Part shown: positions 37,860 through 44,625 of the stretch, piece after piece
Layout of the letters: each line of letters opens with the position of its first letter
Position numbering within the stretch: position 1 is the first letter of the stretch
Assembly: GCA_963781435.1 (NCBI GenBank)
Contig: CAWAGR010000025.1
Coordinates: 72,339-136,338, forward strand
From: an uncultured Actinomycetes bacterium
GTDB taxonomy: Bacteria; Actinomycetota; Thermoleophilia; Gaiellales; Gaiellaceae
Reading direction: 5' to 3'
DNA: 64,000 nucleotides
Program-made: the position numbers and the translations under genes
The notes under the pieces: model-generated
What the model saw: the letters and a program-made list of their open reading frames with translations, nothing else
Database searches by the model: none
Told to the model about the DNA's origin: nothing

Positions 37860-37874
37860 TTGGGCGCGGGCGCG
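37860..37874. repeat. Left copy of a 15-bp direct repeat flanking the block inserted in the atp operon
   Basis: ttgggcgcgggcgcg matches 44611-44625 (ttgggcgcgagcgcg) at 14/15. It lies in the spacer between the zf-HC2 gene and atpD. Confidence 0.6.
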
Positions 37875-37910
37875 GCTCACACGAGCGGCCCGGCCAAAAC
37901 GAGCGTCAGT

Positions 37911-38381
37911 CTATAGAAGGGCGCGCCCGGCCAGCCGCGGTGCCGCCTTGATCGCGAACACCGTTTGCGGCTCGAGCCGGATCAGCTCGGCATGCACGAA
38001 CTGGCGCTGCTCGTGCAGGTCGCGGAAACCGAGCGCCGAGCTCGGGTGCTTCGGACCGGAGTCCGAGAAGAGGGTCATCCCCGCAGCCGCGGCCAGACCG
38101 GTGGCGACGACGAAGACGGCGGCCGTGCGCCGGACAAGCTGCTTGCGGACGCGTCGCGGAGAGGTGACCACGATCGGGCGTGTGAGCTCGACGAGCGGCG
38201 CCTCGCGCAGCAGATGTGTCAGTAACGCAGTATCGGCGGCAATCTCGCTGCAACGCGAACACGTGGCCAGGTGCCGCTCGAGTGCGGCGTTCTCGAGCTC
38301 GGAGGCCTCGCCGTCGAGCCGCAGCGAGATCGCCCGGACCCACCGCTCGCACGGCCTCGTTCTCCGCCAATGAAGACCCAT
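37911..38381 (-). CDS. zf-HC2 anti-sigma-factor-like membrane protein (no adjacent sigma factor gene)
   Basis: ISLRLDGEASELENAALERHLATCSRCSEIAADTALL (the H-x3-C-x2-C motif), followed by one TM segment (AAVFVVATGLAAAAGMTLF). Confidence 0.65.
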   Translation of the reverse strand: MGLHWRRTRPCERWVRAISLRLDGEASELENAALERHLATCSRCSEIAADTALLTHLLREAPLVELTRPIVVTSPRRVRKQLVRRTAAVFVVATGLAAAAGMTLFSDSGPKHPSSALGFRDLHEQRQFVHAELIRLEPQTVFAIKAAPRLAGRALL

Positions 38382-38419
38382 GAAAAATGCGACGCCCGAG
38401 AGCCCAGTAAGTTAGCCGG

Positions 38420-39532
38420 TTAGCTAGCGCCAGTGGACTCCGGCGGGGAACCGGCAAGCGAGGTGCGCTTGAGCTCCTCCCCCGTCATCGGCCACCGCTC
38501 GACCGGGTGGTGGCACGCGGCTTCGTGGTCGCCTCGGAACGGCTGCAGGACAGGGATCACCGTGTCGCAGAGCCCGATTTCGCAGCGCGGGCAGCGTGGG
38601 TGGAAGACGCATGCGGCCGGCGGAGCGACGGGTGACGGGACGTCGCCGCCGAGAACGATTCGCTGGCGGCTCGTGCCTCCACTGCCGTTCGTCTCCGGCC
38701 TCGGCACTGCCGAGAGCAGAGCCGCGGTGTACGGATGCCGCGGATGCTCGTAGAGCAGTTCCGACTGACCCTGCTCGACCACACGGCCGACGTACATCAC
38801 CGCGATCCGGTCGGAGACCTGCCGGATCACCGAGAGGTCGTGCGAGATGAAGACGTAGGTGAGGTCGAACTCGTCCTGGAGGCTCTTCAGCAGGTTCAGG
38901 ATCTGCGCCTGCACCGAGACGTCGAGCGCCGAGACCGGCTCGTCGCAAACGATCAGCTTCGGCTGAAGCGCGAGAGCGCGCGCGATGCCGATCCGCTGCC
39001 GCTGGCCGCCCGAGAACTCGTGCGGGTAGCGGTTGTAGTGCTCCGGGCTCAGGCCCACGCGACCGAGCAGCTCGCGCACCCGGCTCTTCGCGTCCTTCTC
39101 GGTCTTGTGGATCGCGAACGGCTCACCGACGATCTGGCCGACGCTCTTGCGCGGGTTCAGCGACGAGTAGGGATCCTGGAAGATCATCTGCATCTGCCGA
39201 CGCAGCGGTCGAAGCTGCTTCTGCGACAGACGGCTGATGTCCTGGCCTTCGAAGCGCACGGTGCCGGACGTCGGCTCGAGCAGGCGGACGATCAGGCGCG
39301 CTGTGGTCGACTTGCCGCATCCTGACTCGCCGACGATTCCGAGCGTCTCGCCCTGGTTCACGCTCAGCGAGACGTCCTCCACCGCGTGCACGAACCCCTT
39401 GCTACGCGCGAAGACGCCCTGCGTGACCGGGAAGTACTTGGTCAGGTGCTCGATCTCCACGAGCGGCACTTGGCCGGCGCGCTGCTCGCTCACACCGTGC
39501 TCTGACGATGCCGGCTCAGGGGTCGACGCCAT
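38420..39532 (-). CDS. Peptide/nickel-type ABC transporter ATP-binding protein (OppF/DppF-like)
   Basis: [16 protein letters not shown]...[15 protein letters not shown]...[12 protein letters not shown]...[12 protein letters not shown], with a C-terminal Cys-rich oligopeptide-ABC tail. Confidence 0.9.
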
Positions 39533-43448: not shown

Positions 43449-43557
43449 GTTGTCTGTCTCCCTCCTTCCCCCACGTCACTCCGACGAGGGGGGGTTGCAG
43501 TTGACCGCATTCTTTGACGACAAGCTGAGGTCACCGGTTAGTTGGCTCATAGCTGGC

Positions 43558-44536
43558 TCAGCGGTCCGCCCGCACGTCGAGCGCGTCCCGGAGGCCATCG
43601 CCGAGCAGATTGAAGGCAAGCGTCGTGACGACGAGGAAGAGACCGGGGAAGAGCATCAGCCACCAGGCGTCTGCGTAGAGATGCGACGCCTGGTTGAGAA
43701 GCCCACCCCAGGAGGCCGTGTCAAACGGAACACCGAGGCCGAGGTAGGAGAGCGCCGCCTCGAAGAGAATGGCCTGCGGGATCAGCAGCGTGGTGAAGAC
43801 GATGATGGGCCCGATCAGGTTGGGCAGGACCTCGCGGAAGATGATGCGGGTGTTGCCAGCTCCGAGCGACCGGCTCGCCTCGATGAACTCGCGCTCTCGT
43901 ATCGAGAGCGTGTAGCCGCGCACGATCCGGGCGACATACGACCACGTGAAGAGCGCGATCACCGCCACCACGAGTCCTATCCCCGACTGGACGATGCCGT
44001 TCAGGCACCCGTCCTTGGACGAGCTGCACGCCGCGACGATGCCGATCGAGATCAGGAGCGACGGCAGCGCGAGCATCACGTCGCCGGCCCGCGAGAGAAG
44101 CGTGTCGCTCCAGCCCCGGAAGTAGCCGGCGAGCAGACCGACCACGAGGCCGATGAAGACGGCGATGCCGGTTGCGACGACGCCGACGATCAGCGAAGTG
44201 CGCGCGCCGTACATCGTCCTCACGAAGAGGTCACGGCCGGTCTCGTCGGCGCCGAACCAGAAGTCGTTGTTCGGCCCCCGCGGAATCCCGAACTCGTCCT
44301 GCATCGTGTCGGTATAGGCGTCCTGATTGCCGTGACCGGTTACCGCGGCGGCAATCGGGCCGCCGAAGATGGCAAGGAAGATCAGCAACACGATCACGAC
44401 CGCCGCCGAAGAGCGCCACCTTGTCGTCGCGCATGCGCGCCCAGAAGAGCTGGGACGGACTCCTGCTCACGACCTGCGTCTCGTCGCCGGAGCGAAGCAG
44501 CTCAGTCGCAGACGTCAGGTCTGTTGTGGTGGTCAT
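43558..44536 (-). pseudogene. ABC transporter permease (OppC/DppC-like); one indel near 44398-44405
   Basis: N-terminus MTTTTDLTSATELLRSGDETQVVSRSPSQLFWARMRDDKVALFGG is in one frame. The remainder (VIVLLIFLAIFGGPIAAAVTG...EASRSLGAGNTRIIFREVLPN...) is ORF 43558-44397. Confidence 0.85.
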
Positions 44537-44610
44537 CACACAGTCCCTCGCAAATTGCGGGTCAGGCCGGACACCGGTCGCAAGTATAAGACGTACTTTC
44601 GACCGAGCGG

Positions 44611-44625
44611 TTGGGCGCGAGCGCG
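44611..44625. repeat. Right copy of the 15-bp direct repeat flanking the block inserted in the atp operon
   Basis: ttgggcgcgagcgcg lies 9 nt beyond the atpG stop, in the same orientation as 37860-37874. Confidence 0.6.

Follow-up and report, generated by a model that had tools for sequence, protein, structure and literature searches.

A probably old, order-wide split of the ATP synthase genes between atpG and atpD in Gaiellales, around a resident peptide-type ABC importer

Analysis of a 64,000-nucleotide (nt) stretch of an uncultured Gaiellaceae bacterium (Actinomycetota, Thermoleophilia, Gaiellales; assembly GCA_963781435.1, contig CAWAGR010000025.1, positions 72,339 to 136,338), hereafter the window, revealed F-type ATP synthase genes in two parts, an arrangement shared with relatives across the order. 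The break falls between the gamma and beta subunit genes: on the minus strand atpG (44634..45527; PF00231, E=2.3e-92) ends at 44634 and atpD (36415..37827; PF00006, PF02874, PF22919) starts at 37827, leaving the parts 6.8 kb apart on the same strand, and atpC (35978..36406, minus strand; PF02823) starts 8 nt past atpD such that the beta and epsilon genes are adjacent. An initial annotation, made from the sequence alone, had described the interruption as five genes of an ATP-binding cassette (ABC) transporter plus a zf-HC2 gene, all on the minus strand, and open reading frame (ORF) coordinates together with Pfam matches confirmed this. The preferred reading, to which we assign a joint probability of roughly 0.8, is of an old order-wide split around a resident transporter, with three transcription units and a coincidental repeat at the borders. 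The Gaiellales genes would accordingly be organized as atp(Z,I)BEFHAG and atpDC, separated by a vertically inherited importer of the Dpp/Opp family followed by the zf-HC2 gene. A single origin of the split would lie at or close to the base of the Gaiellales sampled, and cassettes would later have been replaced, more genes inserted, and the block lost in one clade.

Relatives were gathered by an AtpG-based scan with one genome per species, from which the analysis took the best 80 of at least 575 loci, the closest belonging to Gaiellaceae, Gaiellales, and Thermoleophilia metagenome-assembled genomes (MAGs) and the more distant 25 to Solirubrobacterales and Thermoleophilaceae. Their genes were called with a caller based on GC content at third codon positions (GC3), and the atp and block genes were located by tblastn. 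Look-ups of the AtpG and AtpD of the window by exact sequence gave no match. The atpG-atpD gap reached at least 2.6 kb in 40 of the 43 informative Gaiellales-like loci, spanning 6.3-9.6 kb in 26, more than 9.9 kb in 12, and 2.7 kb in two, and the genes were adjacent in three loci (15-199 nt). The consensus architecture comprised atpA, atpG, permease C, the solute-binding protein, permease B, two successive ATPases, a gene of a family denominated f8, zf-HC2, atpD, and atpC. Collinearity of the window with L053 extended along the full 20 kb (nucleotide identity 84-89%), the window was likewise collinear with L052 and L005 (approximately 75-85%), and the block had diverged in step with its flanks in L053, L052, L005, and L082, the last being from another metagenome assembly with the same arrangement and intact genes. 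Metagenome contigs with AtpG 87-97% identical shared the left junction, and those of sufficient length contained the entire arrangement with intact genes. All close relatives examined carried the block, and adjacent atpG-atpD occurred among Gaiellales-like loci only in one separate, nested clade. Because the same arrangement, collinear, was maintained in relatives across the order, the split is best understood as old and inherited. A derived position of the block relative to an ancestral contiguous operon was supported since atpG and atpD were adjacent, 24-212 nt apart, in all 24 informative outgroup loci (Solirubrobacterales/Thermoleophilales-type).

The initial annotation had interpreted the interruption as an insertion with a duplicated target or recombination site, and of this the derived state of the block relative to a contiguous operon was retained while the role of the repeat as target or recombination site was not. 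In its full form, the proposal is that a 6.7-kb unit was recently inserted by transposition or site-specific recombination and that the repeat is the duplicated target or attachment site. The borders do carry a repeat with a 14/15 match that is improbable by shuffling, the outgroup junction is uninterrupted, and the total GC of the binding-protein and permease region is 63-65% compared to 68-70% around it. However, the split and the same gene set extend across the order, the block is collinear and has diverged in step with its flanks in the four relatives named above, and the boundary repeat was found in none of 28 relatives, with neither copy conserved as such in the closest ones. The composition was also host-like, with a GC3 of 0.83-0.94 in block genes and 0.93-0.95 in atp genes; first codon positions account for the lower total GC, a shortfall that reflects amino-acid composition. 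No transposase, integrase, or recombinase was identified in the block ORFs by Pfam and NCBIfam scans, which returned only transporter domains and zf-HC2. A recent insertion is thus very improbable, and the old, inherited split is favored.

The repeat itself is present as described, a 15-bp direct repeat matching at 14/15 positions in the same orientation. Its left copy, TTGGGCGCGAGCGCG (44611..44625, plus strand), begins on the gene strand 9 nt past the atpG stop codon, and its right copy, TTGGGCGCGGGCGCG (37860..37874, plus strand), lies in the atpD leader downstream of a -10-like element. A scan of the window allowing at most one mismatch recovered only these two copies compared to 0.17 expected, and 3 of 3000 dinucleotide-preserving shuffles of the 97-nt and 83-nt border spacers produced a match of 14/15 or better, placing the repeat nominally above chance; among cross-locus pairs of orthologous spacers (n=400) the best match was 13/15. 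The sequence is of low complexity, consisting of (CGCGCY)x2 followed by CAA. The spacers that hold the copies also vary by small indels. Beside the right copy, for instance, the atpD leader contains a tandem 12-mer (37834..37857, minus strand; CGACTTTTCAGG / CGACTTCCCAGG), the second unit of which bears the ribosome-binding site, and the L053 leader has one unit only.

Relatives shared the split without the repeat, an outcome that the initial annotation had itself named as refuting its interpretation, the boundary match being at most 12/15, the null level, in all 28 that had both junctions. The left copy was shrunk to a core CTCGCG-CCAACC in L084 (AtpG 94%), L053, and L085 and was absent in L005, L052, and L082. 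The right copy overlaps a 16-nt segment absent from L053, and L088 (approximately 83% identical) reads CGCGCCGTGCCCAAT at this position. A reading of the segment as specific to the window was rejected as L088 carries a version of it. Among the relatives compared, the repeat pair as such is private to this genome. As one component of the joint reading given above, the repeat would be a coincidence of GC-rich, slippage-prone spacer sequence and not an insertion scar. The repeat could otherwise be a functional site, such as an operator for one regulator at both borders, or the product of gene conversion between the spacers. Such a role would account for the statistical excess in this genome and for the short core GCGCC(C)AA that a few close relatives have at each border, yet it has only a slim chance of being correct, given that the pair is conserved in no relative and that the copies are placed differently relative to the putative promoters, the left approximately 20-40 nt upstream of the transporter -10 element and the right approximately 35-50 nt downstream of the atpD -10 element. 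The copies also lie outside any stable fold: z-scores ranged from -0.95 to +0.9 when the two junction spacers and four orthologous atpD leaders were folded, with no structured leader or terminator and no repeat copy acting as a hairpin arm.

Among the Gaiellales-like relatives, the adjacent sites were confined to a nested clade. The atpG-atpD spacer of L045 and L046 was 15 nt long, TAAGGAGACACATG (L045:10880-10915, L046:10880-10915), that of L051 (10880-11085) was 199 nt with the atpD-upstream motif kept, and L048 (2860-5655) and L049 carried a 2.7-kb insert with unrelated genes. On the opposite strand, the L048 insert includes a putative nucleotidyltransferase-like gene and a putative NhaA-like fusion gene, both assigned by reading the sequences. 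In a neighbor-joining tree of AtpA and AtpG, from which L049 was dropped for low coverage and in which L054, with a contig ending at atpG, was included, L045, L046, L048, L051, and L054 were monophyletic in 200/200 bootstraps. This clade was basal to the other Gaiellales-like loci in 0/200 bootstraps and joined the window clade plus its sister in 116/200. As the adjacent cases are nested, the two-protein distance tree suggests, as the simplest reading, a secondary loss of the block, with atpG and atpD apparently re-fused in L045 and L046.

The junctions might also have been an artifact of misassembly, with atpG and atpD truly adjacent in the organism. The assembly of the window is prone to error, frameshifts occurring in atpB, ahcY, and both permease genes, and a suspicious tandem second atpB-atpG is present in L081, but dozens of independent assemblies, made in different projects and on different platforms, had the same junctions, such that this explanation merits almost no credence. 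The second copy in L081 (L081:960-10878; ERZ1700618) spans atpB-atpG and the 5' part of the permease gene at 87% identity, the first copy having fragmented genes, and it stems either from an ancient duplication or from two strains assembled into a chimera.

A single-base insertion splits the frame of each permease gene, at window 44400-44420 (ggcggcGgtc) and 40845-40852 (gcgaAagggtctg), and both insertions were absent from L053, L052, and L005. In close relatives the permeases were intact, with 321-339 amino acids across both genes and 321-332 amino acids with OppC_N for the DppC/OppC-like one. Elsewhere in the window, ahcY (S-adenosylhomocysteinase, 21014-22354) is broken into at least four frame pieces and the middle third of atpB is out of frame, and the related long-read MAGs L053, L052, and L005 have a broken atpG or atpD. 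Since atpB and ahcY are also frameshifted, the permease frameshifts are probably assembly errors, and the window is an indel-prone assembly, probably from long reads. A decaying pseudogene cluster was considered and rejected on the atpB and ahcY frameshifts, the broken atpG or atpD in related MAGs, and the intact permeases in close relatives. The frameshifts in the window should therefore be treated as assembly noise.

The initial annotation had further placed the transporter inside the ATP synthase transcription unit, which became doubtful given conserved -10-like elements before both the transporter and atpD and opposite-strand genes in the gap of relatives. A motif search of the 160 nt upstream of atpD in 32 loci identified TTCGnTAGACT 59-87 nt upstream of the gene in approximately 30 of them, with a log-likelihood of 120 vs approximately 25 for shuffles. 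In the window this candidate -10-like element, TTCTATAGACT (37908..37918, minus strand; TAGACT at 37913-37908), overlaps the zf-HC2 stop codon, and the motif was kept where the upstream gene differs or lies on the opposite strand. A matrix scan of the whole window gave two matches vs approximately six expected by chance, both upstream of genes. The second of these, TCGGGTAAACT (13226-13236, minus strand), lies 58 nt upstream of a gene putatively assigned as ftsE by its neighborhood.

The transporter operon is preceded by TATACT (44583..44588, minus strand), a putative -10-like element 46 nt upstream of the permease ATG and held within ACGTCYTATACT, which is invariant in the window, L053, L005, and L052. 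More broadly, a TAnnnT motif with the consensus GCTATGCTCC was identified in 25 atpG-permease spacers (log-likelihood 64 vs 26-36 for shuffles) and lay only 9-12 nt from the start codon in many relatives. A third candidate element, GCTATGCT (49942..49949, minus strand), matches GCTATGCTCC and ends at its 3' side 8 nt upstream of the start codon of the first atp ORF, which would imply a leaderless or very short-leader transcript. Boxes of the TAnnnT type at -10 and leaderless mRNAs are typical of Actinomycetota. A sigma-70 consensus scan found no promoters, and an Rfam scan of 30-55 kb gave no match at E up to 1. As -10-like motifs precede the first atp ORF, the transporter, and atpD, three transcription units are favored, each most likely with its own -10-type promoter, located before the first atp gene, before the transporter, and 59-87 nt before atpD. 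Beta and epsilon would then have an mRNA of their own, the situation in cyanobacteria and chloroplasts.

A single long operon transcribed from a promoter before the first atp gene, with the -10-like motifs serving as internal boosters or not being promoters at all, would be consistent with the organization of the window, where every gene from the first atp ORF through atpC lies on the minus strand with short spacers, atpG and the last ATPase gene both lack a terminator-like hairpin downstream, and neither spacer has significant RNA structure. It is nevertheless unlikely because the motifs are conserved across approximately 25-30 diverged loci and because 12 loci have gaps above 10 kb including an unrelated MoxR-DUF58-VWA set. 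Furthermore, opposite-strand genes or an inverted transporter occupy the gap of L020, L003, L004, and L048, so that expression of atpDC needs no read-through there.

Several points weigh against the joint reading of an old split, separate transcription units, and a coincidental repeat. The comparison covers the best-matching part of the loci in the scan, and in the 12 loci with a gap above 9.9 kb atpD lay beyond the 10 kb flank. Support for placing the adjacent clade together with the window clade is only 58%, in a neighbor-joining tree of two proteins from MAG sequences. Genes are co-directional in most loci, making read-through from atpG to atpD possible, and terminator-like matches were at chance level with none after atpG or the transporter. 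Finally, the repeat is nominally improbable by chance (approximately 0.001), and its coincidence is explained only by low complexity and local indels.

The larger part of the split cluster, on the minus strand, had been annotated as a contiguous atpZ-I-B-E-F-H-A-G run, which was upheld by Pfam for atpE, atpF, atpA, and atpG, with atpB frameshifted, and by position for atpZ, atpI, and atpH. The first small membrane ORF (49730..49933; 67 amino acids, GC3 0.88) had no Pfam or NCBIfam match and resembles atpZ in position only; L082 has an equally long ORF at this place. The second (49335..49733; 132 amino acids), also without a Pfam or NCBIfam family match, is atpI-like by position only. The a subunit gene atpB (48478..49338) showed out-of-frame sequence in the middle of its translation, the middle-piece ORF in the other frame (49124-48744) matching PF00119 ATP-synt_A positions 26-103. 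It is followed by atpE (c subunit, 48186..48464; PF00137, E=1.3e-13), atpF (b subunit, 47634..48161; PF00430, E=6.6e-26), atpH (delta subunit, 47104..47617), and atpA (alpha subunit, 45540..47057; PF00006, PF00306, PF02874). The atpH ORF of the window itself had no Pfam match, and its positional counterparts in L082 and L085 matched PF00213 OSCP. Downstream of atpC, a secreted-looking protein of 223 amino acids with no family match (35307-35978) precedes the cobalamin-dependent methionine synthase MetH (31559-35149; 1196 amino acids), which was also found near atpC in several relatives.

The block, likewise on the minus strand, encodes a complete Dpp/Opp/Nik importer according to Pfam, with one SBP_bac_5 protein, two BPD_transp_1 permeases, and two ATPases with an oligo_HPY tail. 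The DppC/OppC-like permease gene (43558..44536; PF00528) has its N-terminus in another frame owing to one extra base near 44410. The family-5 solute-binding protein (41616..43448; PF00496, E=1.7e-56) is of the peptide/nickel/opine type, and its substrate class was not assigned by NCBIfam, in which the OppA, DppA, and NikA models gave 33-55 bits vs equivalog cut-offs of 393-1098. The DppB/OppB-like permease (40563..41529) is spread over two frames, one matching PF19300 and PF00528 positions 1-91 and the other PF00528 positions 92-183, with the extra base near 40850. Its stop codon is overlapped by the GTG start (GTGA) of the OppD/DppD-like ATPase (39532..40566; PF00005 and PF08352 (oligo_HPY); NF007010 399 bits, below cut-off). 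The OppF/DppF-like ATPase (38420..39532; PF00005 and PF08352) scored 409.6 bits with NF008453 vs a cut-off of 408, and this subfamily model for one ATPase was the only curated NCBIfam cut-off reached by the transporter, no equivalog cut-off being reached.

The last gene of the block encodes an anti-sigma-factor-like zf-HC2 membrane protein of 156 amino acids (37911..38381, minus strand; PF13490, E=6.2e-11, residues 11-44) with an H-x3-C-x2-C zinc-binding motif at its N-terminus (HLATCSRC in translation) and weak matches to the RsrA and anti-sigma-E models of NCBIfam. The Pfam scan found no sigma-factor domain in the block, and no cognate ECF sigma factor gene adjoins the zf-HC2 gene, whose neighbors are the ABC ATPase upstream and atpD downstream. 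The zf-HC2 family occurred in 18 gap loci including the window, beside atpD or elsewhere in the gap. The f8 family of the consensus architecture is a conserved membrane protein of approximately 119 amino acids encoded between the last ATPase gene and zf-HC2 in many loci (e.g., L010:17089-17448); it had no family match and was missing from the window, L053, and L043.

The five-gene transporter occurred as two deeply diverged types in the same unusual order (example gap spans are L001:10900-19000 and L043:10900-18000), all five genes differing by type and the binding proteins being 23-29% identical between types and 35-60% within them. The type of the window was found in the window clade, L043, and L034, a set that was monophyletic in 0/200 bootstraps of the AtpA and AtpG tree, and the window clade was sister to a clade with the other type in 200/200. 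This polyphyly suggests cassette replacement, or old paralogy with differential loss. Further loci carried two canonical-order cassettes and one inverted cassette. In addition, a MoxR (AAA_3)-DUF58-VWA set and a second transporter in canonical order were identified in 12 loci (L011-L015, L022, L023, L025, L028, L029, L035, and L036; positions 10.9-20.9 kb of the loci), being placed after the zf-HC2 gene in L025 and L028. The gamma-beta junction as a long-lived exchange site, always holding a peptide-type ABC importer of at least four kinds, is a tentative and rather doubtful proposal. Beside differing cassettes, the position of the zf-HC2 gene and of the atpD promoter-like element is unchanged, which could reflect repeated replacement of the cassettes through recombination between conserved flanks. 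Alternatively, peptide uptake, the zf-HC2 membrane protein, and the control of beta and epsilon synthesis could be functionally linked.

The main consequence is a correction: what appeared as a repeat-bounded interruption is most probably an old, order-wide gene order, and reporting it as a mobile insertion would be a mistake. An entire order of soil actinobacteria, abundant and rarely cultured, would thus encode its ATP synthase in two parts, with a cyanobacteria-like break, and the candidate atpDC promoter can be tested in cultured Gaiella. The loci also provide a natural series for operon splitting and rejoining, from split, through split with extra inserts, to apparently re-fused with a 15-nt gamma-beta spacer. 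A literature search found no paper on the Gaiella atp arrangement, and the split is an unsurprising but undescribed lineage-wide gene order.

Compared with known systems, all five component types of Dpp/Opp/Nik importers are present, although their usual order is A-B-C-D-F and here it is permease C, binding protein, permease B, D, and F. A genomic island or transposon with a target-site duplication would likewise interrupt a conserved operon with unrelated genes and be flanked by a short direct repeat, as seen in this genome only; unlike such elements, the block has no mobility genes and no compositional signal, is old and lineage-shared, and does not carry the repeat in relatives. Splits of the atp gene block (atpIBEFHAGDC) have been reconstructed along the phylogeny (bioRxiv 10.1101/212886). 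Those splits separate the Fo from the F1 genes in proteobacteria, whereas the present one is a lineage-fixed split of gamma from beta in Actinomycetota. The break has the same position in cyanobacteria and chloroplasts, where it also falls after gamma and before beta and where beta and epsilon remain a pair. In cyanobacteria the beta-epsilon pair forms a separate operon, which was reportedly described by Cozens and Walker in 1987. The Synechocystis atp operon has been listed as seven subunit genes with beta and epsilon not among them (PMC4383579). The parts are dispersed in the genome in cyanobacteria and chloroplasts, whereas in Gaiellales they lie 6-10 kb apart on the same strand with a conserved transporter operon between them, and are probably transcribed separately.

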